Virus record (IMG/VR): IMGVR_UViG_3300042542_005523
Length of the DNA stretch: 64,000 nucleotides
Direction: 5' to 3' (one strand)
Origin: a virus
Lineage: Duplodnaviria; Caudoviricetes
Position 1 is the first letter of the stretch. Each line of letters opens with the position of its first letter. The notes beneath the pieces were generated by a model. That model was not told the DNA's origin, searched no databases, and saw nothing but the letters and a program-made list of their open reading frames with translations. Positions 14,090-55,053 of the stretch are shown one piece after another. Position numbers and translations under genes: made by a program.

Positions 14090-14713
14090 ATGATTAAAAA
14101 GAAAGTAGTAATATCAAGATTTAGTGAGTCCCCCGATTGGGTAAAAAAAATCGATTGTGATTACATTATATTCAATAAAGGTGATAAAATAGAGGATCCT
14201 GAAATATCACCGGAGAAAATAATAAATGTACCAAATCAAGGAAGGGAAGCTGAGACTTTCCTTAGATACATCTGTGAAAATTATTCGGATCTTTCTGATT
14301 TTACTATATTCGTCCAAGGCAATCCATTTGACCATTGGCCAAGAACTTTAGAGTATATTAACAGTGACTCTTTTTTAGATCCAACCGATATAGTTTCTCT
14401 AGGATACGAAACAACAACAGATCGTACGGGTGGGATTTCTTATCCTGGCTTACCAATCGGAGATTTCCAAAAAATGCTAGTGCCTTCTGGTGAACCAGAC
14501 GAAATCCATTTCACAGCGGGTGCTCAATTTATTGTTCCTAAAAAATTAATCATGAACAAATCACTATCTTACTGGAAATCCCTAAGAAATTCTTTTGAGC
14601 ACTATTGGTATAGCAATATACCTTCAGGATACGGTATACCCCCGGGCCATTTTATAGCTCATGTTTTTGAAAGATTATGGCCAATGATTTATAGGTATTC
14701 AGATGATGTATAA
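14090..14713 (+). CDS. DUF3431 family protein (glycosyltransferase-associated)
   Basis: VVISRFSESPDW...PNQGREAETFLRYICENY...FVQGNPFDH. Confidence 0.75.
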   Translation: MIKKKVVISRFSESPDWVKKIDCDYIIFNKGDKIEDPEISPEKIINVPNQGREAETFLRYICENYSDLSDFTIFVQGNPFDHWPRTLEYINSDSFLDPTDIVSLGYETTTDRTGGISYPGLPIGDFQKMLVPSGEPDEIHFTAGAQFIVPKKLIMNKSLSYWKSLRNSFEHYWYSNIPSGYGIPPGHFIAHVFERLWPMIYRYSDDV

Positions 14714-15815
14714 AAAATACGATTATGTTATAGCTGGCTCCGGTCTCTTTGGTGCTGTTTTTGCTAGAGAGATGACCGACCGCGGAAAGACCTGCCTGAT
14801 TATAGAGAAAAGAAATCACATAGGCGGAAATTGTTATACTGAGAATAGGGATGGCATAAATGTTCACGTATATGGACCGCACATTTTTCACACTAATGAT
14901 AAAGATATATGGGATTGGATATCTAGATTTTGTGACTTCCTACCCTATAAGCACTCGCCCAAAGTGAGATATGGCGATAGGACGTTTTCATTTCCCATAA
15001 ATCTAATGACGCTCCACCAACTATGGGGGGTAAATACACCAGAAGAGGCAAAAGAAAGAATCGAAAGGGAGAAAGTAATTTTTGATAATCCAAAAAATCT
15101 AGAGGAATGGGCTCTTTCCCAAATTGGAACAGATTTATACGAAATATTCATAAAAGGATACACCGAGAAACAATGGGGTAGGGATCCAAAGGATCTACCG
15201 GCTTCTATCATAAAAAGACTACCAATACGGACAAACTTTGATGACAACTATTTTTTTGACAAATACCAAGGTATACCAGAGGGGGGATACACTGGGATTT
15301 TCGACAAGATCCTGGATGGTATAGAGGTGATAACGGGAGTTGATTATTTTGAGGATAGAAACAAATGGGATTCATTGGGATCAAAAATCGTTTACACCGG
15401 TAAGATAGATGAATTTTTTAATTATAAATTTGGTGAGCTTGAATATAGGACTCTGGAATTCAAACATCAGAGAATTGACAAGGTTGATTTTCAGGGATGC
15501 CCAATAGTTAATTATACGTCATCTACTATCGAGTGGACTAGAATAACAGAGCACAAGCACTTCGAAAATTCCAAGAGTGAAAAAACTTGGATCACAATGG
15601 AATTCCCTAAAGAGTATAAAAATGGGGACCTTCCACTTTATCCGATTGGTGACGATCAGAACATGGATAGATTTGGGAAGTATAAAAAGATGACAGCGGA
15701 CATGGGTAAATTTATATTTGGAGGAAGACTTGCTGAATATAGGTATTATGATATGCACCAGATCATAGCATCGGCTTTAACTAAAGCTGCGAAAGAATTA
15801 GCTCTTCAATCTTAA
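14703..15815 (+). CDS. glf: UDP-galactopyranose mutase
   Basis: GSGLFG FAD motif, GGNCY, HVYGPHIFHT, YQGIPEGGYT, GGRLAEYRYYDMHQII. Confidence 0.95.
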   Translation: MMYKKYDYVIAGSGLFGAVFAREMTDRGKTCLIIEKRNHIGGNCYTENRDGINVHVYGPHIFHTNDKDIWDWISRFCDFLPYKHSPKVRYGDRTFSFPINLMTLHQLWGVNTPEEAKERIEREKVIFDNPKNLEEWALSQIGTDLYEIFIKGYTEKQWGRDPKDLPASIIKRLPIRTNFDDNYFFDKYQGIPEGGYTGIFDKILDGIEVITGVDYFEDRNKWDSLGSKIVYTGKIDEFFNYKFGELEYRTLEFKHQRIDKVDFQGCPIVNYTSSTIEWTRITEHKHFENSKSEKTWITMEFPKEYKNGDLPLYPIGDDQNMDRFGKYKKMTADMGKFIFGGRLAEYRYYDMHQIIASALTKAAKELALQS

Positions 15816-30380: not shown

Positions 30381-30454
30381 GGGGTTATAGCTTAAATCGG
30401 TGAGAGCGACGGTCTGAAAAACCGTAGATCCGGACTCGAGGCCCGGTATCCCCA
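30381..30454 (+). tRNA. tRNA-Phe(GAA), atypical T-arm
   Basis: Anticodon arm ACGGT-CTGAAAA-ACCGT; T-loop CTCGAGG. Confidence 0.75.
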
Positions 30455-30495
30455 CAAAAGAATCTGATCAACGGATTAGATGCAGAAGATTAAAT

Positions 30496-30569
30496 ACATC
30501 ATTGGTGAAATTGGCTAATCATCTTGGACTCCAAATCCAAGGTTCTGGGTTCGAATCCTAGATGGTGTG
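30496..30569 (+). tRNA. tRNA-Trp(CCA)
   Basis: TTGGA-CTCCAAA-TCCAA; canonical T-arm. Confidence 0.92.
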
Positions 30570-30602
30570 CAGAAATAAGTTCTTTGACATATTGGAAACC
30601 AT

Positions 30603-30675
30603 AATTCCTTAGCTCAGTTGGTAGAGCGCCTCCCTTACATGGAGGAGGCCGCAGGTTCGAGCCCTGCAGGGATTA
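30603..30675 (+). tRNA. tRNA-Val(TAC)
   Basis: CCTCC-CTTACAT-GGAGG; full cloverleaf. Confidence 0.93.
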
Positions 30676-30684
30676 CTTAATTAT

Positions 30685-30757
30685 GCTCGGTTCGTCTAGA
30701 GGCCTAGGACATCCCCCTTTCACGGGGAAAACATGGATTCGAATTCCATACCGAGTA
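30685..30757 (+). tRNA. tRNA-Glu(TTC)
   Basis: TCCCC-CTTTCAC-GGGGA; full cloverleaf. Confidence 0.92.
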
Positions 30758-30830
30758 CAAACATATTAAACAAGAAATTGCCTCGCTAAACTAACCAGGT
30801 TTAGCAAGACAAAAACAGGTTTAGCATAAT

Positions 30831-30918
30831 GACCTCGTGGCGCAATTGGTAGCGCAACTGACTTTTAATCAGTAGGGAAGCTGTATAGCCGTTGTGGGTT
30901 CGAGCCCCACCGGGGTCA
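30831..30918 (+). tRNA. tRNA-Lys(TTT) with 20-nt variable region
   Basis: ACTGA-CTTTTAA-TCAGT; variable region 30874-30893. Confidence 0.85.
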
Positions 30919-30924
30919 CTTTAG

Positions 30925-31033
30925 CGATGGTGGTAACGCGCTTTGAGGAGAAAGTAGCTTTGGACCTGCAAGTCCAGTCAAGCGAAGAGTATCCAATTAG
31001 GAGGATAATTCCACTCGTCACTTGCAGGTGACG
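30925..31033 (+). ncRNA. Candidate structured RNA with complementary hairpin loops
   Basis: Hairpins TGGAC-CTGCAA-GTCCA and CGTCAC-TTGCAG-GTGACG with complementary loops, plus two more stems. Confidence 0.55.
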
Positions 31034-31038
31034 TAAAT

Positions 31039-31112
31039 GGGGTAGTAGCTCAGCTGGTTAGAGCACATGACTGTTAATCATGTGGTCATAGGTTCGAATC
31101 CTATCTACCCCG
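31039..31112 (+). tRNA. tRNA-Asn(GTT)
   Basis: CATGA-CTGTTAA-TCATG. Confidence 0.95.
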
Positions 31113-31119
31113 CTAAAAA

Positions 31120-31192
31120 GCGGAAGTAGCTCAATTGGTAGAGCGCGGCCTTGCCAAGGCCGAGGTTGCCGGATCATTCCCGGTCTTCCGCT
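31120..31192 (+). tRNA. tRNA-Gly(GCC)
   Basis: CGGCC-TTGCCAA-GGCCG; T-loop ATCATTC. Confidence 0.88.
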
Positions 31193-31200
31193 CAAAAAAT

Positions 31201-31273
31201 GCGATAGTAGCTCAATTGGTAGAGCACCGTCCTTCCAAGTCGGGGGTCGCAGGTTCGAGCCCTGTCTATCGCT
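31201..31273 (+). tRNA. tRNA-Gly(TCC)
   Basis: Loop CTTCCAA; acceptor GCGATAG/CTATCGC. Confidence 0.92.
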
Positions 31274-31284
31274 CACCCAAAGAT

Positions 31285-31356
31285 AGCGAGGTAGCTCAGA
31301 GGCAGAGCAACCGACTCATATTCGGTAGGTCAGGATCTCGGAATTCCTCCTCGCTA
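31285..31356 (+). tRNA. tRNA-Met or Ile2 (CAT), atypical T-arm
   Basis: ACCGA-CTCATAT-TCGGT; T-loop CTCGGAA; lacks initiator hallmarks. Confidence 0.72.
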
Positions 31357-31362
31357 CTATAT

Positions 31363-31433
31363 TGTCCCTTCGTCTAAGGGCAGGACAGCTGATTTTGATT
31401 CAGCTAATGGTGGTTCGAATCCATCAGGGACAA
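31363..31433 (+). tRNA. tRNA-Gln(TTG)
   Basis: GCTGA-TTTTGAT-TCAGC. Confidence 0.92.
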
Positions 31434-31444
31434 CAATTTAAAAT

Positions 31445-31519
31445 ACTCAGGTAGCTCAATTGGTTAGAGCACCTCGCTGATACCGAGGAGGCCTGAAGGT
31501 TCGAGTCCTTCTCTGAGTA
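31445..31519 (+). tRNA. tRNA-Ile(GAT)
   Basis: CCTCG-CTGATAC-CGAGG. Confidence 0.92.
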
Positions 31520-31526
31520 CTTAATT

Positions 31527-31601
31527 CGGGATGTAGATCAGTTGGATTAGATCGCCTGGTTTGGGACCAGGAGGCCGCAGGTTCGAGTCCTGCTATCCCG
31601 A
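31527..31601 (+). tRNA. tRNA-Pro(TGG)
   Basis: CCTGG-TTTGGGA-CCAGG. Confidence 0.94.
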
Positions 31602-31608
31602 CTAAAAT

Positions 31609-31681
31609 GGGCCGGTAGCTTAAGAGGCTAAAGCGCTGCACTTGCAATGCAGAATATTGGGTTCGAGTCCCACCGTGTCCA
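31609..31681 (+). tRNA. tRNA-Ala(TGC), irregular acceptor stem
   Basis: CTGCA-CTTGCAA-TGCAG; G3-U70 identity pair present. Confidence 0.82.
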
Positions 31682-31689
31682 CTAAATTT

Positions 31690-31762
31690 GCTCTCATAGC
31701 TCAATGGTCAGAGTCGGACGCTTATATCGTCAAGGTTGCAGGTTCGAGTCCTGTTGGGAGTA
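31690..31762 (+). tRNA. tRNA-Ile(TAT)
   Basis: GACG-CTTATAT-CGTC; canonical T-arm and acceptor. Confidence 0.85.
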
Positions 31763-31889
31763 CAAGTTTCCAATATAAAATTAAAAGTTCATCTGGTTTT
31801 CTGCGGAATCCTGTTCTATATTTGTAAAGTAATTAAAAACTTAGGCATGAAGGAAGGAAAGGAGTTTAAACTAAAAAAGGGTAACTAGA

Positions 31890-31988
31890 ATGGATCAAAT
31901 CGGACACGTCGTTCTCTTTACAATAATAGGATTGCTAATAGCAATGTTAGTATATCTAGCGGCATGGCAACCTAAAAAATGGAAATAA
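31890..31988 (+). CDS. Small membrane peptide (32 aa)
   Basis: Hand-translated MDQIGHVVLFTIIGLLIAMLVYLAAWQPKKWK. Confidence 0.45.
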   Translation: MDQIGHVVLFTIIGLLIAMLVYLAAWQPKKWK

Positions 31989-32210
31989 TGGGATACTGGC
32001 TCTGGGCAGATTGAAAACACACAGGTTAAAATCCTGTACTGATTACAAAAATAAAACCTCAACAAATAAAGTTGTGAGTTGTATTGAAATAGCCAATTAT
32101 AAGCCAACATAAAGCTGTTGGGTGCAGATGGAGTAATTAACCAGGAGCGCAGGCACTGATTGTGACGGTACAACAAATACCCCTCTGAGTTTGGGTTTTA
32201 TTTTAAATAT

Positions 32211-32308
32211 AGTTAGGTGGCGGAATGGTAGACGCACAAGACGGGCGATGCATTTAAAACAGAAATAAGCCTGGTCGGTTTTTACAGGTTCGAATCCTGT
32301 CCTGACTG
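32211..32308 (+). ncRNA. tRNA-like element 1 (48-nt central insert, no anticodon loop)
   Basis: AGTTAGG-TGGCGGAATGGTAGACGC-[insert]-ACAGGTTCGAATCCTGT-CCTGACT-G. Confidence 0.78.
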
Positions 32309-32321
32309 CTAAAAGAAAGTT

Positions 32322-32564
32322 ATGAATAAAATAGAGAATTACAATTTTGACAAAAATGATTGGGCACATTTCCATGATGTTATTTTAGATGTGACTTGGA
32401 ATGATGGTAAAGTGAATCTAAATCAAAAAGAAATGGAACAATTATTTTGGGAGTTACCAGAAGATATGAGAATTGATGCTCAAAAATATGGTATGAATGA
32501 TACACCTTGGAGAGATAGTCTGCGGGTATGGTATGAACGAAATAAAATGGGTAAGACTGTTTAA
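32322..32564 (+). CDS. Hypothetical protein
   Basis: 80-aa ORF between tRNA-like elements. Confidence 0.7.
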   Translation: MNKIENYNFDKNDWAHFHDVILDVTWNDGKVNLNQKEMEQLFWELPEDMRIDAQKYGMNDTPWRDSLRVWYERNKMGKTV

Positions 32565-32579
32565 TTGGTTATAAAACAT

Positions 32580-32698
32580 AGTCAGGTGGCGGAATTGGTA
32601 GACGCTGCTGTGGGGCGACACCACTCTTTTAAAAACAGCATAAGCTCTTGCAATGATGTACACATTGCAAGGTACAGGTTCAAGTCCTGTCCTGACTA
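32580..32698 (+). ncRNA. tRNA-like element 2 (68-nt central insert)
   Basis: Same scaffold; TGCTG/CAGCA stem with expanded loop and 9-bp CTTGCAATG/CATTGCAAG arm. Confidence 0.78.
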
Positions 32699-32700
32699 CT

Positions 32701-32779
32701 CTGGGCTCAGTAAAGCCTCTTATCGTAAGATAACGTAACTGAAGTGGATAACCTAGAAATAGGTGACGCTCCACTATGG
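32701..32779 (+). ncRNA. Candidate structured RNA with two GNRA hairpins
   Basis: TTATC-GTAA-GATAA inside TCAGT/ACTGA; ACCTA-GAAA-TAGGT inside AGTGGA/TCCACT. Confidence 0.55.
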
Positions 32780-32859
32780 AGTCAGGTGGCGCAATTGGAA
32801 AACGCAACTCGCGGTGTACACAGAGGAGTGAATTACAGGTTCGAGTCCTGTCCTGACTA
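32780..32859 (+). ncRNA. tRNA-like element 3 (29-nt central insert)
   Basis: Same scaffold; ACTC/GAGT stem with 15-nt loop. Confidence 0.75.
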
Positions 32860-32861
32860 CA

Positions 32862-33070
32862 CGTTCCGACTAATCATCGGATAGTATGCCTCATACGATG
32901 AGAAGTGGTGTGATAGCCACAGAGGAGAGTTGAAGGTTCGTATATACAAACCTTCCAGTTGACTACTGACGTCGGTAAAACCCTTCACGAGGGGAGCAAG
33001 ACAGTCTATTCCTAACTCAGCAATGAGGACAGCCATATCACCTGTAAGTTGGATAAATTAGGGTGTTTTT
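32862..33070 (+). ncRNA. Candidate multi-hairpin structured RNA (about 205 nt)
   Basis: At least six hand-found hairpins and long-range CCGAC/GTCGG and TAGT/ACTA pairings; no ORF. Confidence 0.55.
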
Positions 33071-33074
33071 ATAT

Positions 33075-33237
33075 AGTCAGGTGGCGGAATTGGTAGACGC
33101 TATCGTACTCAAGTAAGGCAAAGCAATGTAGATGAAACGTCGTCGCATGGTGAGTTAACACCTAAAAGTCTTTGGACTTGAAATCCAAAAAACCTTGAGT
33201 ATGTTCTACGATACAGGTTCGAATCCTGTCCTGACTA
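33075..33237 (+). ncRNA. tRNA-like element 4 (112-nt central insert)
   Basis: Same scaffold; insert closed by TACTCAAG/CTTGAGTA; contains TTTGGA-CTTGAAA-TCCAAA. Confidence 0.78.
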
Positions 33238-33262
33238 CAAAAATTAAAATCTAAGGTAATAA

Positions 33263-33544
33263 ATGAAATGCTACGAATGTAAACACAGAGGAAATGTAAT
33301 AGGCTCAGCTCATAGCAGCTGTGGTGTTATCAGAAGCACAGGTAGTGAGAAGGGACAGGAGTTAGAATTCATGCTGGCGATGGGGCAGGTCGAAATGAAA
33401 GATCAAGATGGTAACCCTATTGTTGATATAGACCCTCATGGTATTCAAAACGGATGGGCTGCTTGGCCTATAGATTTCGATCCAGTTTGGATAAGATCCT
33501 GTAAATTCTATACAGAAAAAGAGAAAACAGGTGAATTGAAATAA
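33263..33544 (+). CDS. Cys-containing hypothetical phage protein
   Basis: CYECKHR...SAHSSC...GWAAWPIDFDPVWIRSC. Confidence 0.75.
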   Translation: MKCYECKHRGNVIGSAHSSCGVIRSTGSEKGQELEFMLAMGQVEMKDQDGNPIVDIDPHGIQNGWAAWPIDFDPVWIRSCKFYTEKEKTGELK

Positions 33545-33553
33545 ATAACATAT

Positions 33554-33627
33554 GCTACCGTGGTGTAACTGAATAACACGTCTAACTACGGATTAGAAGA
33601 GCGAGGGTTTGAATCCTTCCGGTAGTA
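33554..33627 (+). tRNA. tRNA-Arg(ACG)
   Basis: TCTAA-CTACGGA-TTAGA. Confidence 0.9.
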
Positions 33628-33685
33628 CAAAAAATAATCGAAATTAGAAGAAACAAAAAGATGTTCTGATATATAATAACATAAT

Positions 33686-33778
33686 ATGAAAAACTTGATC
33701 CATACATCCTTACATTTATCCACCACGAGTACCACTTGTGATTCGGATTTATTGTGGAGGAGGCTAATGGATCAATAA
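33686..33778 (+). CDS. Candidate leader peptide 2 (30 aa) of tRNA array 2
   Basis: Hand-translated MKNLIHTSLHLSTTSTTCDSDLLWRRLMDQ; GATATATA at 33668-33675. Confidence 0.78.
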   Translation: MKNLIHTSLHLSTTSTTCDSDLLWRRLMDQ

Positions 33779-33830
33779 TAATATTGAATTTTGATTCTGA
33801 AAAAGCCTCCCCTAAAAAGGAGGCTTTTTT
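33755..33830 (+). promoter_or_regulatory. Attenuator 2: antiterminator (A:B) versus terminator (B:C + T run)
   Basis: A GGAGGCT 33759-65; inner TCAATA-ATAA-TATTGA; B AAAAAGCCTCC 33800-10; C GGAGGCTTTTTT 33819-30. Confidence 0.8.
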
Positions 33831-33860
33831 ATTGGCTCTTTGATTTATTAGATTTAACAC

Positions 33861-33944
33861 GGAAGAGGAATCACAGCGGCCTGTGAGCTAGTCTTGAAAA
33901 CTATGCGTACCTCCGGGTATTGGGATCGACACCTACCTCTTCCG
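33861..33944 (+). tRNA. tRNA-Ser(TGA), 8/4 acceptor/T-stem type
   Basis: GGAAGAGG/CCTCTTCC 8 bp; T-stem TGGG/CCTA 4 bp; loop CTTGAAA; 6-bp D-stem; variable arm. Confidence 0.8.
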
Positions 33945-33952
33945 CTTTTTCC

Positions 33953-34028
33953 GGGGCCTGTGGTGTAATGGCTTGCATAACACACTGTCACTGTGTAGGT
34001 CGGGGTTCGAATCCCCCAGGTCCCGCCA
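33953..34028 (+). tRNA. tRNA-Asp(GTC), 8/4 type, encoded CCA
   Basis: GGGGCCTG/CAGGTCCC 8 bp; GGGG/CCCC T-stem; ACACA-CTGTCAC-TGTGT; G73 then CCA. Confidence 0.85.
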
Positions 34029-34030
34029 AT

Positions 34031-34118
34031 GGAAGATGATCCTAAACGGAGATAGGATCCGCCTGCTAAGCGAGATGTTCGGGTAAAACCGGATGAGGTT
34101 CGATCCCTCCGTCTTCCG
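34031..34118 (+). tRNA. tRNA-Ser(GCT), 8/4 type
   Basis: GGAAGATG/CGTCTTCC 8 bp; GAGG/CCTC T-stem; loop CTGCTAA; variable arm. Confidence 0.8.
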
Positions 34119-34123
34119 CAAAC

Positions 34124-34196
34124 TCCAGAGTAGCTCAATTGGTAGAGCCCTTGTTTTGTAAACAAGTGGTTGTCGGTTCGATTCCGTCCTCTGGAT
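34124..34196 (+). tRNA. tRNA-Thr(TGT)
   Basis: CTTGT-TTTGTAA-ACAAG. Confidence 0.92.
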
Positions 34197-34201
34197 CTAA
34201 T

Positions 34202-34274
34202 GACACCGTGTCTGAATGGTTTAGGTCCAGGTCTGCAAAACCTTGGTACGTGGGTTCGAATCCCTCCGGTGTCT
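34202..34274 (+). tRNA. tRNA-Cys(GCA)
   Basis: Loop CTGCAAA; acceptor GACACCG/CGGTGTC. Confidence 0.9.
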
Positions 34275-34280
34275 CTATAT

Positions 34281-34355
34281 GGTGTCTATAGTGTCAGCGG
34301 TATAGCACGACGGGTTGTGGTTCCGTTAGCACCAGTTCGAATCTGGTTAGACACA
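34281..34355 (+). tRNA. tRNA-His(GTG)
   Basis: ACGGG-TTGTGGT-TCCGT; G-1 encoded, discriminator A rather than the usual bacterial C. Confidence 0.88.
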
Positions 34356-34362
34356 CTAATAA

Positions 34363-34447
34363 GCCCCGGTGGCGAAACAGGCTATACGCACCAGACTTAA
34401 GATCTGGCGATCAGTGAATCGTGTGGGTTCGAATCCCACCCGGGGTA
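34363..34447 (+). tRNA. tRNA-Leu(TAA)
   Basis: CCAGA-CTTAAGA-TCTGG; variable arm. Confidence 0.93.
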
Positions 34448-34479
34448 CATAATTTTTTGTACTTTGATATATAGGTATT

Positions 34480-35079
34480 ATGATTGAAGGATACAAAAAA
34501 TACCAAAACGGATTTGTCAAAGACCCAGCTTCTTACTTGTTAAAAGAAGAAGAAAACGTTACTGCCAGCACAAGCCTGGTAACACCGAAAACTCTTAATG
34601 ATTTTTCGGAATCAATATCATCCTCCCTGAATGAGAGAATCGGTGACGAGTATGCTGCTCACTATTTCTATAGAAATGCTGCCAATTGGTGTAAAAATGT
34701 CAATTATAAAAATGCCACAGCATATTTTGAAGCTGAGGCTGCCAGCGAATTAGATCACGCTAAGGGATTACAAGACTACCTGACACAGTGGAACCTAATG
34801 CCTGCTATTCCTGCTGCTCCAACGCAGCATTCTTTTGAAAATCTAGCAGATATTATCAATAAGGCTTACGAGATAGAGTATGAGTTAATGCTTAAATACT
34901 CCGACAATCAAAAAGAGTTCTTAAATGATCACCCAGCAACTTTCAATTTTATTCAGAAATATGTTGATATACAGAATGAAGCTGTTGCTGAATACTCGGA
35001 TCTTTTAAATGCTCTTAATCTAGTGGACATCAACAATAGATTGGATGTCCTTTACTTCGAGAACAATTACTTCGGATAG
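34480..35079 (+). CDS. ftnA: Non-heme ferritin
   Basis: ERIGDEYAAHYFY...EAASELDHA...EIE...QNEA ferroxidase-centre pattern. Confidence 0.8.
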   Translation: MIEGYKKYQNGFVKDPASYLLKEEENVTASTSLVTPKTLNDFSESISSSLNERIGDEYAAHYFYRNAANWCKNVNYKNATAYFEAEAASELDHAKGLQDYLTQWNLMPAIPAAPTQHSFENLADIINKAYEIEYELMLKYSDNQKEFLNDHPATFNFIQKYVDIQNEAVAEYSDLLNALNLVDINNRLDVLYFENNYFG

Positions 35080-37260: not shown

Positions 37261-39411
37261 ATGTATTATTGCGATAAGATTTTAATGGAGAAAGAATATA
37301 TGGAAAATTACGAGGAAGACTATGATCTAAACCTTTCGCCCTCTAACAAATACGGGGACGACGAAGACGATGACACACCAACAGGTGGTTTCAAATCATC
37401 GCAGAATAAATCATCAAAAACACCTGCACTAGACACCTATTCGAGGGATCTGACAGCTATGGCTGCTAGGGGTGAACTCGATCCTATTATAGGAAGAGAT
37501 CACGAGATCGAAAGGGTGTCCCAGATTCTATGTAGAAGAAAAAAGAACAATCCGGTTCTAATAGGAGAACCCGGTGTTGGTAAATCAGCAATTGCAGAAG
37601 GTATCGCCATCCGAATAGTTCAGAGAAAGGTTTCGAGGAATCTTCTTAATAAAAGGATCATTAGTCTGGACATTGCCTCGATTGTGGCCGGTACTAAATA
37701 CAGGGGTCAGTTTGAGGAAAGAATGAAGGCTATCATCGAGGAGCTAAGAGACGATCCTAGTGTGATCATCTTCATTGATGAAATCCACACTATGGTTGGA
37801 GCAGGTGGAGCATCCGGATCCCTTGACGCTTCGAATATGTTTAAGCCTCCTCTTGCTAGGGGTGAACTCCAATGCATAGGTGCCACAACCCTAAACGAAT
37901 ATAGACAGCATATTGAGAAGGATGGAGCTTTGGAAAGAAGATTCCAGAAAATCATCGTGGAAGCTCCAGATGCTGATACGACAATCAAGATCCTCAATAA
38001 CATCAAGTCTAAATACGAGGACCACCACAACGTTACTTACACAGAGGATGCTATTCTAAATTGTGTTAAGCTAACAGAGAGATACATCACCGATAGAAAT
38101 TTTCCAGATAAGGCACTAGATGCTTTAGACGAGGCAGGATCAAGAACACAGCTAACAGAAGTTAAAGTTCCTGATGCAATCAAGAACCTAGAGAAGAATC
38201 TTGATAATATTCACATTGATAAAAAAGACGCAGTCACTAAACAAGACTACGAAGCTGCTGCTAAATTCAGGGACTTAGAAAGAAAGATCAGAGTTAATTT
38301 GGAGCTGGAACAGAAAAACTGGGAGAGTAAACTTAAGGAAGATCGAAAAGTGGTTGATGGAGATAAGGTAGCCGAGGTAGTTTCGATGATGAGTGGGGTT
38401 CCTTTGAAAAAAGTAACACAGGAGGAGAATGAAAAACTTGCTAATCTTGGTCCGGATCTTAAATCTAAAGTGATAGGGCAGGATCCAGCTATCGAGAAAA
38501 TAGCAAAGGCTATTCTTCGTAATAGAATGGGACTAAAAGATCCTAATAAACCAATTGGCTCCTTTATATTCCTAGGTCCTACAGGGGTTGGAAAGACTCA
38601 ACTTGCCAAAGAATTGGCAAAACAATTATTCGGGGATGCCGATGCTTTAATTAGAGTCGATATGAGTGAGTATATGGAGAAGTTTAACTCAACTAAACTC
38701 ATTGGCGCACCTCCGGGCTATGTTGGTCACGAAGAAGGTGGGCAACTGACAGAAAAGGTTAGAAGAAAGCCATACTCGATAGTTCTTTTCGATGAGATTG
38801 AAAAAGCACACCCGGATATCTTTAATTCTTTGCTTCAAATTCTGGACGAAGGTTTAATAACCGACGGTCTCGGCAGAAAGATTAACTTCAAGAACACCTT
38901 GATTATTCTGACATCCAACGTGGGGCAGAGAAAACTAAATGAGTTTGGATCTAGCATTGGATTCTCTAAGGACAAGGCGGAGAAGGCAAAAATAGAAGGC
39001 GAGATCCTACTTAAGAAAGAGCTGGAAAAAACATTTTCTCCGGAGTTCTTAAACAGACTTGACGAGATCATCTACTTTGATCCGCTGGCTAAGGAAAACA
39101 TTATTAAGATCCTTGATGTCGAATTGGATATAATGAAACCTAGGTTTGAATCAATTGGTATTAAAATCAAGATAACTGACACATTAAAAGAGAAGATAGC
39201 TGAGGTTGGCTACGATCCTAAATTCGGTGCTAGACCACTAAAAAGAGTTCTTCAGAAATACGTAGAAGACACTGTTGCTGAAACAATGATCAATAATAAG
39301 ATCAATCCAGGCGATACCTTTACCCTTGACTTTGATCCTAAGAAGGAGGGAACGACTTCTACTCCGGTAAAAGTTAAAATAACCGCCAAAAAACAGAAAC
39401 CAACTGAGTAA
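37261..39411 (+). CDS. clpC: ClpC-like AAA+ chaperone lacking the Clp N-domain
   Basis: Two Walker A motifs (GEPGVGKS, GPTGVGKT), UVR-like middle domain, IGFS loop; acidic N-terminal extension; true start may be M9 or M14. Confidence 0.88.
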   Translation: MYYCDKILMEKEYMENYEEDYDLNLSPSNKYGDDEDDDTPTGGFKSSQNKSSKTPALDTYSRDLTAMAARGELDPIIGRDHEIERVSQILCRRKKNNPVLIGEPGVGKSAIAEGIAIRIVQRKVSRNLLNKRIISLDIASIVAGTKYRGQFEERMKAIIEELRDDPSVIIFIDEIHTMVGAGGASGSLDASNMFKPPLARGELQCIGATTLNEYRQHIEKDGALERRFQKIIVEAPDADTTIKILNNIKSKYEDHHNVTYTEDAILNCVKLTERYITDRNFPDKALDALDEAGSRTQLTEVKVPDAIKNLEKNLDNIHIDKKDAVTKQDYEAAAKFRDLERKIRVNLELEQKNWESKLKEDRKVVDGDKVAEVVSMMSGVPLKKVTQEENEKLANLGPDLKSKVIGQDPAIEKIAKAILRNRMGLKDPNKPIGSFIFLGPTGVGKTQLAKELAKQLFGDADALIRVDMSEYMEKFNSTKLIGAPPGYVGHEEGGQLTEKVRRKPYSIVLFDEIEKAHPDIFNSLLQILDEGLITDGLGRKINFKNTLIILTSNVGQRKLNEFGSSIGFSKDKAEKAKIEGEILLKKELEKTFSPEFLNRLDEIIYFDPLAKENIIKILDVELDIMKPRFESIGIKIKITDTLKEKIAEVGYDPKFGARPLKRVLQKYVEDTVAETMINNKINPGDTFTLDFDPKKEGTTSTPVKVKITAKKQKPTE

Positions 39412-47205: not shown

Positions 47206-48402
47206 ATGGAAAAACCAAACAATATGATACCACTATTTAAGGTATTTATGGACAACAAAGCGGGAGAAGAGGTTAATAAAATTTTAAATTCCGGATTTAT
47301 CGGCCAAGGTAAAAAGGTAGAAGAATTTGAGGCTTTACTTAAAAATTATTTCAGAAACTATCTAGTACTAACAACTAATGCTGCGACCTCAGCAGAGCAT
47401 TTAGCTCTACATATGCTAAGAAATCCATCAACTAATAACGTTTCGGTTGATGGTGTTGCACATTATCAATCAAGCTGGCCAGGAATAAACCCAGGAGATG
47501 AGATATTAACTACCCCCTTGACATGCACAGCAACCAATTGGCCAATCCTTGCTAATGGATTTAAGATAAAATGGGTGGATGTAGATCCTAATACATGTAA
47601 CATGGATTTAGATGACTTAGCAAGAAAGATAACACCAAAGACTAAAGCTATAATGGTAGTTCACTGGGGAGGATATCCGGTAGATCTTGATAAATTGAAA
47701 GATATACAAAATAAAGCTAGCAAAATAATAGGGTTTAAACCGGCTATAATAGAGGACTGTGCACACGCATTTGGAAGCTCGTATAAGGGTAAAAAAATAG
47801 GTAACCATGGTAACATATGTACATTCAGTTTTCAAGCAATTAAACATCTTACAACAGGAGACGGCGGAGCTTTAGTGGTTCCCCATAAAGACCTGTATGA
47901 CAGAGGAAAACTACTAAGATGGTATGGAATTGACAGGGAAACCAATAGTAAAGATTTCAGATGTGAGGATGACATTAAGGAATGGGGCTATAAATTTCAT
48001 ATGAATGATATAAATGCAACCATAGGGATTAATAATTTCAACAAGGTGACGGAGGAGCTGATAAACATAAATATAGAAAATGCTAATTTCTATAATGATA
48101 AACTATCGGGCTTAAAAGACGTCGAACTTATGGAGGTATCGGAGGATAAAAAATCATCGTATTGGATATACACGATCAAAGTAAAAAATAGGGACAGATT
48201 CATGGACCATATGAGGGATTGCAACATAATGGTCAGCAGAGTTCATGAGAGAAATGACAAGCATACGTGCGTGGCAGAATATAAATCAATTCTTCCGAAT
48301 TTAGAAAAACTAACCGAAGAAATGATCTGCATTCCCTGCGGATGGTGGGTATCTAAGGAGGACAGAGAATATATCGTAGAATGCATAAAAAAAGGATGGT
48401 AA
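47206..48402 (+). CDS. DegT/DnrJ/EryC1/StrS PLP aminotransferase
   Basis: IIEDCAHAFG, TFSFQAIKHLTTGDGG, GYKFHM. Confidence 0.93.
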   Translation: MEKPNNMIPLFKVFMDNKAGEEVNKILNSGFIGQGKKVEEFEALLKNYFRNYLVLTTNAATSAEHLALHMLRNPSTNNVSVDGVAHYQSSWPGINPGDEILTTPLTCTATNWPILANGFKIKWVDVDPNTCNMDLDDLARKITPKTKAIMVVHWGGYPVDLDKLKDIQNKASKIIGFKPAIIEDCAHAFGSSYKGKKIGNHGNICTFSFQAIKHLTTGDGGALVVPHKDLYDRGKLLRWYGIDRETNSKDFRCEDDIKEWGYKFHMNDINATIGINNFNKVTEELININIENANFYNDKLSGLKDVELMEVSEDKKSSYWIYTIKVKNRDRFMDHMRDCNIMVSRVHERNDKHTCVAEYKSILPNLEKLTEEMICIPCGWWVSKEDREYIVECIKKGW

Positions 48403-52876: not shown

Positions 52877-53767
52877 ATGATAATACAGGAAATGAATCCA
52901 ATTAAATCGGCGGAAAAAATTAAAGTGATCTTTAACTGCTCAATATTCGAATTCCATAAGGACTACTGTTATAACATAGCAAAAGAATTAACTAACAGAG
53001 GACATATAGCAATCATAGAGGAGGATAGAAATGCATTTCATGCTGATGCAGACTTTACAATACAACCCGATGAAGCATGCTTAAGAATGGGTGGTAAGGG
53101 TATCTGGATAAATCACGCATTTCCTTTCGTGCCGCAGAATGAATTTTATTCATCAACAGAATTTATGGATGAGCTAAATAGAAACTCTGATTACATATTT
53201 ACTTTTTCCGACGAATGGGTCGAAAATCAAAAACATTACGGACTTCCGATATTTAATGTGGGAATGCCAAAATTGGACAATTTCTCCAGGATTCAAACCG
53301 ATGTGTTTAATATTCTGTATGTTCCTACGTGGAACGAAGAGCTTACAAGTTCAAGAGTAATAGATATCGAAATGCTAAAGACCAAAGGTAACCTCATTTA
53401 TAGGGGTCACCCAGCATTTAACACCAGTGAAATTCCACTAATGGAAGCTTTATCAATAGCTGATGTTGTGATAACAGATTATTCTTCGGTTGGATTAGAA
53501 TCGATAGTGCTGGATATACCAACAATATTTTACACTAATGAAAGATATGGTTCAGTTGGTGATCATATATCAAATAAAGCGATGGAAGCTGGTATCTGCG
53601 TTAGTGACGATGTTGCATTGGAAGTAGCAATAGAAACATACCGAAACAATCCATCATTTTTATCTATAGAAAGAGAGAAGTATTCAAAAATACTAGCATC
53701 AAATTTGGGGGAATCATCAATATGCTTTGTCAATACCCTAGAAAAAATAAAATCAGAATGCATATGA
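52877..53767 (+). CDS. CDP-glycerol glycerophosphotransferase (TagF-like) family protein
   Basis: [24 protein letters not shown]. Confidence 0.78.
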
Positions 53768-55053
53768 AAAAAGTCTATATAGCAATGAGTGCCGATTTAG
53801 TCCACCATGGTCACTTAAACATAATCGAGGAAGGTAGAAAATTAGGCGATGTTATTGTCGGAGTATTAACAGATAAAGCTATAGCATCATATAAGAGACT
53901 TCCGTATTTAGATTTTGAAGCAAGAAGTAGAATAATAGAAAATATAAAAGGTGTAAATCTAGTTGTTCCCCAGGAGACCCTTGATTATGTAGAAAATCTT
54001 AGAAAATACAAACCTGATTACGTTATACATGGTGACGATTGGCAAACGGGAAGACAAAAACAAGTAAGAGAAAGAGTTATAGAAACCATAGGCGAATGGG
54101 GAGGTGAATTGGTAGAGATTCCGTACACCGAAGGAATATCTTCAACACAGTTGAACTATATACAAAAAAGTATAGGTACTTCTCCCGCTATCAGACAATC
54201 TAAGTTAAGAAGGCTACTTGATTCCAAAGAAATAGTTAGAGGCATGGAAGCACATACTGGATTGAGCGGAATAATAGTAGAAAAAGCTTTTGTTGTTAAA
54301 GATGATAAAACCGAAGAATTTGATTGCATATGGATGTCAAGTTTAACAGATTCTACATCAAAAGGGAAACCCGATATTGAGTTGGTTGATAGACTTGATA
54401 CATTAAATCAGGTGCTAGAGGTAACAACTAAGCCTATTATAGTAGATGGTGATACTGGAGGTGTAGAAGAACATTTCTGTTATACAGTAAGGACTTTGGA
54501 AAGACTAGGGGTTTCGGCTATAATTATAGAGGATAAAATCGGTCTTAAGAAAAATTCACTATTCGGAACTGACGTCGACCAAGAGCAAGACACGGTCGAT
54601 AACTTTTGCTCCAAGATAGCAGCAGGTAAAAAATCTCAGGTATCAAATGAATTCATGATCATTGCCAGAATAGAGAGCCTTATATTAGGTAATGGTCTTG
54701 ATGATGCTATATTAAGAGCTGAAAAATATATAGCCGCTGGTGCTGATGGTATTATGATACATAGCAAAAAAACAGATCCGAATGAAATATTCGAATTCTG
54801 TAAAATGTATCAGAAGCTAAATAATAAAGCACCTCTTTTTGCTGTTCCTTCAACGTATGATTCAGTAACAGAGAAAGAACTAATAGACAATAATATAGAT
54901 TTAGTAATCTATGCAAATCATCTAATAAGAAGCGCATACCCCGCAATGCTTAAAACCGCTGAAAGCATACTGCTTCACGAGAGGGGCAAGGAGGCATCGG
55001 AAAATTGTTTAAGCATAAAGGAAATATTAGATCTAATACCAGGGACAAGATAA
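53764..55053 (+). CDS. pepM: Phosphoenolpyruvate mutase with N-terminal cytidylyltransferase domain
   Basis: ADLVHHGH (HxGH) N-domain; [13 protein letters not shown]-mutase motif; start moved to MKKVYIAMS. Confidence 0.93.

Follow-up and report, generated by a model that had tools for sequence, protein, structure and literature searches.

tRNA array and flanking genes

The window described here is a stretch of 64,000 nucleotides from a virus of the Caudoviricetes (IMG/VR record IMGVR_UViG_3300042542_005523). It contains a tRNA array at positions 30381–34448, in which 20 genes were called by ARAGORN and three further genes were matched by Rfam, giving approximately 23 tRNA genes. One of these, on the plus strand at 33953–34028, was called as tRNA-Asp(GUC) by both programs. 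It is the only Asp tRNA of the window and the only member of the array in which a full CCA is encoded, the others having just a C after the discriminator.

The tRNA-Asp gene is flanked on the same strand by two serine tRNA genes. The upstream neighbor, a Ser(UGA)-type tRNA at 33861–33944, possesses a long variable arm and, like tRNA-Sec, a 6-bp D stem with a 4-nt loop; it was detected neither by ARAGORN nor by Rfam even at E ≤ 1, and its RNAfold minimum-energy fold is a cloverleaf with eight acceptor-stem pairs and four T-stem pairs (8/4). The downstream neighbor, a tRNA-Ser(GCU) at 34031–34118, starts two bases downstream of the tRNA-Asp and is drawn by ARAGORN with eight acceptor and four T-stem pairs. 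In both serine tRNAs, positions 8, 49 and 65 are G, U and C, respectively, and in other loci of the family described below (L085, L100 and L120) the Ser(GCU) gene has A at 8 and U at 65. As both serine neighbors are of the 8/4 type, an 8/4 fold of the tRNA-Asp would place three such tRNAs in a row.

The array also holds its own tRNA-His, and an 88-nt tRNA-Lys(UUU) with an extra arm or insert is located at 30831–30918. Versions enlarged in this way to 82–90 nt were observed for Lys, Asn, Arg, Gln, Val, Trp, His, Cys, Thr and Met tRNAs, also in other loci (L093, L181, L224 and L116); the variable loops of these tRNAs are normally short. No aminoacyl-tRNA synthetase was found among the 11 large ORFs scanned, out of 18 ORFs of at least 300 aa in the window. 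A ClpB-like ATPase is encoded at 37261–39411, and its nearest proteins are found in uncultured phages of 630–640 kb; the nearest phages by this protein (72–73% identity; L001 and L002) have an ordinary tRNA-Asp with seven acceptor and five T-stem pairs (7/5). Sugar and phosphonate genes are present at 14703–15815, 47206–48402 and 53722–55053, with products comprising a UDP-galactopyranose mutase, a DegT-family aminotransferase and a PEP mutase fused to a cytidylyltransferase. A near-identity search with positions 33000–35000 against deposited phage genomes returned no match, nor did an exact pattern with the acceptor sequence of the window tRNA-Asp itself in IMG/VR. An identical copy of the tRNA-Asp is present on an independent metagenome contig (L257).

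Structure of the tRNA-Asp gene

The 7/5 split between the acceptor and T stems is treated as near-universal for elongator tRNAs, with exceptions among Sec, some Ser, His and Cys tRNAs. A first-pass annotation, made from the sequence alone, had proposed an 8/4 fold for the tRNA at 33953–34028, and its individual elements were borne out base by base. The 8-nt 5' strand of the acceptor stem (33953–33960) faces the 3' strand (34017–34024) in eight consecutive pairs, seven of them Watson-Crick and one a G.U at 33956:34021, so the annotated full pairing of the two strands holds if the wobble is counted. The eighth pair joins G33960 to C34017. A 2-nt connector (33961–33962) follows, with U33961 directly after the eighth pair, where U8 had been said to fall in register, and G9 beside it. 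The D arm (33963–33978) has a stem of 33963–33966 with 33975–33978 and an 8-nt loop that includes A14, A15 and the GG pair, and the anticodon arm (33980–33996) has a 5-bp stem (33980–33984 with 33992–33996) and a loop at 33985–33991, with the GUC anticodon at 33987–33989 and C38 at 33991. A 5-nt variable loop (33997–34001) leads to the T arm (34002–34016), in which 34002–34005 pair with 34013–34016 to form the predicted GGGG/CCCC stem of four G:C pairs, closed by a 7-nt T loop. The expected G73 is found at 34025 and is followed by CCA at 34026–34028.

The first-pass annotation was also correct in that a 7/5 reading of the same gene requires a G (G33960) at position 8 and a C (C34001) opposite C34017 at 49:65. 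Such a reading demands in addition a 3-nt connector and a 4-nt variable loop; in the 8/4 reading the connector is the canonical 2 nt, the variable loop is 5 nt, and C34001 occupies position 48 rather than 49. The positions that tell the two readings apart are thus 33960, 34001 and 34017. Both termini (33953 and 34025/34028) are common to the 7/5 and 8/4 readings, so mapping of the mature 5' end does not tell them apart and would exclude only the register of the Rfam alignment, with a start at 33954.

The available programs represent this gene in different ways. ARAGORN draws a 7/5 cloverleaf with three spacer bases and the 49:65 pair open. The match to the Rfam tRNA model scores 52.6 bits; here 33960 is paired with 34017, one pair of the T stem is deleted, and the alignment runs from 33954 to 34024 and takes C34024 as the discriminator. 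The 8-pair stem and the 4-pair T stem are both present in the minimum-energy and centroid folds obtained with RNAfold.

Covariation in the 8/4 tRNA-Asp set

Comparative data from IMG/VR and metagenomes support the 8/4 interpretation. A set of 52 distinct sequences was chosen on the presence of seven of seven acceptor pairs, four of four T-stem pairs and the 3-nt connector geometry, and the 8:65 pair was left unconstrained. Parts of the T arm were set in advance in several of the patterns by which sequences were gathered, and the sample is therefore no random draw of phage tRNA-Asp genes. The 8/4 covariation that the first-pass annotation had suggested seeking in phage tRNA-Asp genes was looked for in this set: pair 8 is G:C in 48 sequences, A:U in four and unpaired in none. 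Across the alignment, substitutions affect both bases of all eight acceptor pairs, and 100% of the cells of these pairs and of the four T-stem pairs are paired; 99% of D-stem cells are paired, and five of five anticodon-stem pairs covary. The alternative 49:65 pair is non-standard in 22/22 sequences, and position 49 (by the 7/5 count) is a pyrimidine opposite C or U at 65 in 52/52, never complementary, in a set to which two of the patterns contributed with a fixed pyrimidine at both positions. In the 8/4 register, the eighth pair is followed by U in 52/52 and the A at position 14 is invariant. The last base of the variable loop is always a pyrimidine, which fits position 48 opposite A15; in the window tRNA-Asp, A15 lies opposite C48, a less usual Levitt pair than the A15:U48 of most members. 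By nearest-neighbor energy, the 8/4 fold is better than the 7/5 fold by 1.2–2.8 kcal/mol in all 52 sequences.

The first acceptor pair is C:G in 27 sequences, G:C in 16, A:U in five and U:A in four. Its appearance in all four Watson-Crick forms indicates that the helix truly begins at 33953. The bacterial Asp identity elements include G73, G10, C38 and G2:C71 (Giege and Eriani 2023, PMC9976931). The second pair is G2:C71 in 50 of the 52 sequences, and G73, G10 and C38 each reach a conservation of 90% or more; the window tRNA-Asp has all of these as well as G1:C72. The family differs from bacterial tRNA-Asp, in which G1:C72 is said to be conserved, in that its first pair is often C:G, A:U or U:A. 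Stems that drift by compensation while the identity bases stay are the signature of selection for charging by AspRS.

Variation at the extra pair is limited to G:C and A:U, and few independent changes from one to the other are evident. Two A:U lineages in the alignment are each nearest to G:C sequences and not to each other, and a further A:U sequence (L253) resembles by eye G:C genes such as L265. On these sequence relationships, the A:U form would have arisen at least twice, and probably a third time. In the Asp and Ser versions alike, the extra pair is purine:pyrimidine only.

Two classes of phage tRNA-Asp

A further scan of IMG/VR, in which nothing but the two loops (anticodon and T) and the distance between them was specified and positions 8, 49 and 65 were free, returned 115 distinct sequences, nearly all of which are tRNA-Asp genes. 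Among those with a 2-nt connector (n = 91, nearly all with U8), 49:65 is paired in 90; the sole exception (L188), which was scored as having a 2-nt connector only through a 3-of-4 D-stem match, has G8, C65 and U49. The 15 sequences with a 3-nt connector share G8 and C65 without exception and carry a pyrimidine at 49, so that 8:65 can pair and 49:65 cannot.

Scans directed at other base combinations gave the same association of positions 8 and 65. In a scan for a pyrimidine at 49 opposite U65, four loci were recovered, and all four have A at position 8. In metagenomes, a scan for pyrimidine opposite pyrimidine at 49:65 found G8 in 36 of approximately 38 well-formed genes with C65, and A8 in three distinct sequences that combine U65 with a connector of 3 nt. 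No match was obtained for a purine at 49 opposite G65, and the scan for a non-U at 49 opposite A65 returned one tRNA in the canonical register and one sequence that is un-tRNA-like by eye; with no 8/4 match in the G65 and A65 scans, no pyrimidine:purine form of pair 8 was seen. A D-arm pattern recovered 48 loci in IMG/VR, a sample biased by the G fixed at position 8 in the pattern; the same pattern with position 8 freed returned no new IMG/VR locus, only genes with G8, and so provides no test of covariation.

Both canonical and 8/4 tRNA-Asp genes are found in some phages (L090, L116 and L248), and on one scaffold (L249) a second Asp gene, of 79 nt, combines G at position 8 with a 49:65 that can pair. 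Rare tRNA-Asp genes in the canonical register that combine U8 with a 49:65 mismatch also exist (L377, L299 and L271).

Distribution of the family

More than 50 relatives of the 8/4 tRNA-Asp are carried by uncultured phages, and one is carried by the cultured gut phage crAss001. The recurrence of the layout in 52 distinct homologs with covariation, together with the identical copy on the independent contig L257, is, at the level of sequence, beyond chance. In Bacteroides phage crAss001 (MH675552), the gene is located at record positions 2068–2143 and is annotated plainly as tRNA-Asp; its acceptor stem consists of eight pairs and its T stem of four, and C faces C at 49:65. The tRNA-Asp of the Cronobacter jumbo phage GAP32 is canonical 7/5. 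The commonest 3'-half signature of the family is present in IMG/VR and metagenome sequences from gut, from freshwater, from soil and from other kinds of sample. In a set of 185,579 prokaryotic species, each represented by one genome, this signature was found in two contigs only; both are 8/4 and are located in dense tRNA arrays on phage-looking MAG scaffolds. Two scaffolds with family members, L249 (JBAZIW010000001.1, 362,763 bp; also the scaffold of L256) and L248, were deposited as bacterial MAGs, one of them under the label Candidatus Paceibacterota. They carry dense tRNA arrays typical of huge phages, with a tmRNA also present in L249, and may be mis-binned phage genomes.

Among 343 tRNAs in 23 loci of the family, the 8/4 signature extends beyond Asp and Ser only to one Ala and one Pro tRNA. 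The gene annotated as tRNA-Ala in crAss001 (L374, 1501–1574) and a gene at 1215–1289 of L103 are tRNA-Ala(UGC) genes with the body of the 8/4 Asp family, together with G3:U70 and A73. The L103 gene is a clean 8/4, and the crAss001 gene has eight acceptor pairs, a bulged U and a 3-pair T stem. By sequence, these look like an Asp scaffold remolded into an alanine tRNA. A tRNA-Pro(UGG) on the minus strand of L093 (4482–4556) has an 8-pair acceptor stem and only three clean T-stem pairs, and may represent a further case of a shifted junction in a short-loop tRNA.

HNH insertion in gut-phage relatives

An insertion of ~660 nt divides the 8/4 tRNA-Asp gene after position 37 in relatives from gut phages, as at 378–1036 of L081 (MT836666.1) and in approximately 27 IMG/VR loci (e.g., L083, L087–L089 and L094). 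The insert contains an ORF for a 183-aa HNH endonuclease followed by a complete 7/5 tRNA with a GUC anticodon. No group I intron was detected in the insertion by Rfam; an intron was rejected on this basis, and the insertion is read as an endonuclease-plus-tRNA cassette. From its gene content, it looks like a homing cassette that carries its own replacement tRNA. Since the cassette supplies a 7/5 GUC tRNA, it suggests that the 8/4 and 7/5 forms of tRNA-Asp are interchangeable.

Proposed role and alternative explanations

We propose that the gene at 33953–34028 encodes an aspartate-accepting elongator tRNA of a large phage whose native cloverleaf is 8/4. In this structure, G33960 would pair with C34017 in place of the usual 49:65 pair, and the stacked acceptor/T helix would thereby keep its 12 pairs. 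U33961 would fill the structural role of U8 and C34001 that of pyrimidine 48, such that the exit of the 5' strand and the entry of the variable loop are shifted by one pair with the length and ends of the helix unchanged. By established tRNA biology, it is this 12-pair stack that RNase P, EF-Tu and the CCA-adding enzyme recognize. The tRNA-Asp would be released from a Ser-Asp-Ser-Thr-Cys-His-Leu transcript by RNase P and 3' nucleases of the host, with 5' cleavage at 33953, host AspRS would charge it by way of the conserved identity bases, and the charged tRNA would read GAU and GAC. From the observed sequence, covariation and distribution we infer expression, processing, charging and decoding of the 8/4 tRNA-Asp; because the 12-pair helix, the termini, the D- and T-loop elements and the Asp identity are all kept, normal processing, charging and decoding appear most likely. 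The default view is that the 8/4 layout is a stable structural isomer functionally equivalent to 7/5. The 8/4 fold of the window tRNA-Asp, taken alone, is very likely, and the combined statement that this fold is native and belongs to a working Asp tRNA is likely.

Two other readings concern the fold itself. The gene could be an ordinary 7/5 tRNA-Asp with flaws, in which G8, one connector base too many, a variable loop of 4 nt and a C.C mismatch at 49:65 are tolerated. This is how ARAGORN draws it, the termini are the same under either reading, and the rare canonical-register genes with U8 and a 49:65 mismatch show that a mismatch at this pair does occur. The same four departures would, however, have to co-occur in 52 distinct sequences, and position 8 would have to follow position 65 without reason, with G only beside C and A only beside U; base 49 is never complementary to 65 in this set, compared to 90/91 paired in phage tRNA-Asp of the normal register, and the 7/5 energy is worse in every one of the 52. 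We therefore consider a flawed 7/5 tRNA very improbable. A layout like that of tRNA-His, in which G33953 would be G-1 paired with C34024 as the discriminator above a 7/4 body, agrees with the Rfam register of 33954–34024 and with a weak blastn similarity to phage tRNA-His genes. It was rejected and is scarcely credible, since the anticodon is GUC instead of GUG, the G34025 and CCA that follow C34024 fit G73-CCA, the first pair takes four Watson-Crick forms as opposed to the fixed G-1:C73 of tRNA-His, the conserved G:C at the second pair is that expected of G2:C71 counted from 33953, and the array has a separate tRNA-His.

The remaining alternatives accept the 8/4 fold and differ in function. 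The molecule could serve not as a translation adaptor but as a decoy for a host tRNA-cleaving defense, as a regulatory or processing element of the operon, or as a tRNA that is charged and left unused. Irregular 8/4 tRNAs that are charged yet unused in translation are described by Mukai et al. (PMC5389517), and in the phages that also hold a canonical tRNA-Asp the 8/4 copy could serve another purpose. Against this, the anticodon loop, C38, G73, G10 and G2:C71 are kept while the stems drift by compensation, which is the pattern of a charged decoder; there is no second Asp tRNA among the ~23 tRNA genes of the window, and the HNH cassette that disrupts the 8/4 gene brings a replacement 7/5 GUC tRNA. 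A non-adaptor role is accordingly judged unlikely. A different departure from the default of equivalence is that the 8/4 layout is an adaptation of phage tRNAs, spread over Asp, Ser and, on an Asp-like body, Ala and Pro. Moving the junction by one pair might evade a host factor that reads the corner formed by positions 7, 8, 49 and 65, for instance a tRNA-cleaving defense nuclease or a modification or quality-control enzyme, and RNase P, AspRS, EF-Tu and the ribosome could still use the tRNA. This idea is rather doubtful; if true, the HNH cassettes, with their specific disruption of the 8/4 gene, would be the sign of a further level of conflict.

Under the preferred reading of a native 8/4 tRNA that is charged with aspartate, the family is conserved and widespread in phages and is drawn by gene finders as a flawed 7/5, rather than being a one-off. 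It would constitute a natural test of whether enzymes count pairs from the T loop or read strand connectivity, with RNase P, EF-Tu and the CCA-adding enzyme as candidates for pair counting. The restriction of the extra pair to purine:pyrimidine in both Asp and Ser versions may reflect a structural rule that the shifted junction obeys, and the 8/4 tRNA-Asp may serve as a natural scaffold for tRNA engineering. The presence of a member in crAss001, a cultured phage of human-gut Bacteroides, opens the fold, expression, charging and modification of the shifted U8 to direct testing.

Comparison with known tRNAs

Bacterial tRNA-Sec has an 8/5 branch of 13 pairs, a long variable arm, a 6-bp D stem and a UCA anticodon. 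The window tRNA-Asp shares with it, and with selC* tRNA-Cys, an acceptor stem of eight pairs; both of these differ in having a long variable arm, longer D or anticodon stems, and other identities and anticodons. An identity as tRNA-Sec was rejected for the window gene on its 12 pairs, short variable loop, 4-bp D stem and GUC anticodon, and Rfam gave no tRNA-Sec match. By Mukai et al. (2017, Nucleic Acids Res 45:2776, PMC5389517), the selC* tRNA-Cys is described as a bulged (modified) 8/4, with the fold confirmed by mutants locked into 7/5 and 8/4.

The same study describes 8/4 folds in phages and some bacteria, where they occur in tRNA-Ser and tRNA-His. The tRNAs of phage clusters were all folded by hand there, and only Ser and His were reported as 8/4. 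The window tRNA-Asp resembles these phage tRNAs in its 12-pair branch split 8+4, its location in a phage tRNA cluster and the occurrence of several 8/4 tRNAs side by side; its two serine neighbors are of the published type. Unlike the published Ser type, it has the Asp identity set and a short variable loop of 5 nt. Allo-tRNAs, which include 8/4 and 9/3 forms, possess a long V-arm, and they are grouped with tRNA-Ser; within the covered parts of PMC5389517 the GUC anticodon is found only in allo-tRNAs, and it is among their commonest anticodons (PMC5389517, PMC7609411). The 8/4 branch and the GUC anticodon are common to GUC allo-tRNAs and the window tRNA-Asp. An allo-tRNA identity was rejected, as the variable loop (33997–34001) is 5 nt with no long arm and the Asp identity set is present. 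The statement of the first-pass annotation that 8/4 folds are known for Ser, His, Cys/Sec-like and allo-tRNAs, and not for Asp, holds for these two sources within the parts covered: the 2020 review (PMC7609411) contains no 8/4 Asp case and, the supplementary cloverleaf figures of PMC5389517 aside, no 8/4 tRNA-Asp with a short variable loop was found in the literature. The comparative sequence data support an 8/4 layout of an aspartate tRNA, not previously reported, as a short-loop Asp member of the 8/4 tRNAs, and the list of exceptions to the 7/5 rule would gain an ordinary short-loop aspartate tRNA.

With canonical bacterial and phage tRNA-Asp, such as that of GAP32, the window tRNA-Asp shares the anticodon loop, G73, G10:U25, C38, G2:C71, the T loop, the D-loop GG and the overall length. 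One base that canonical tRNA-Asp has on the variable-loop side of the junction lies on the 5' side in the window tRNA-Asp, and the pair stacked under 7:66, made by base 49 in the canonical 7/5 form, would be made by base 8 in the 8/4 tRNA-Asp.
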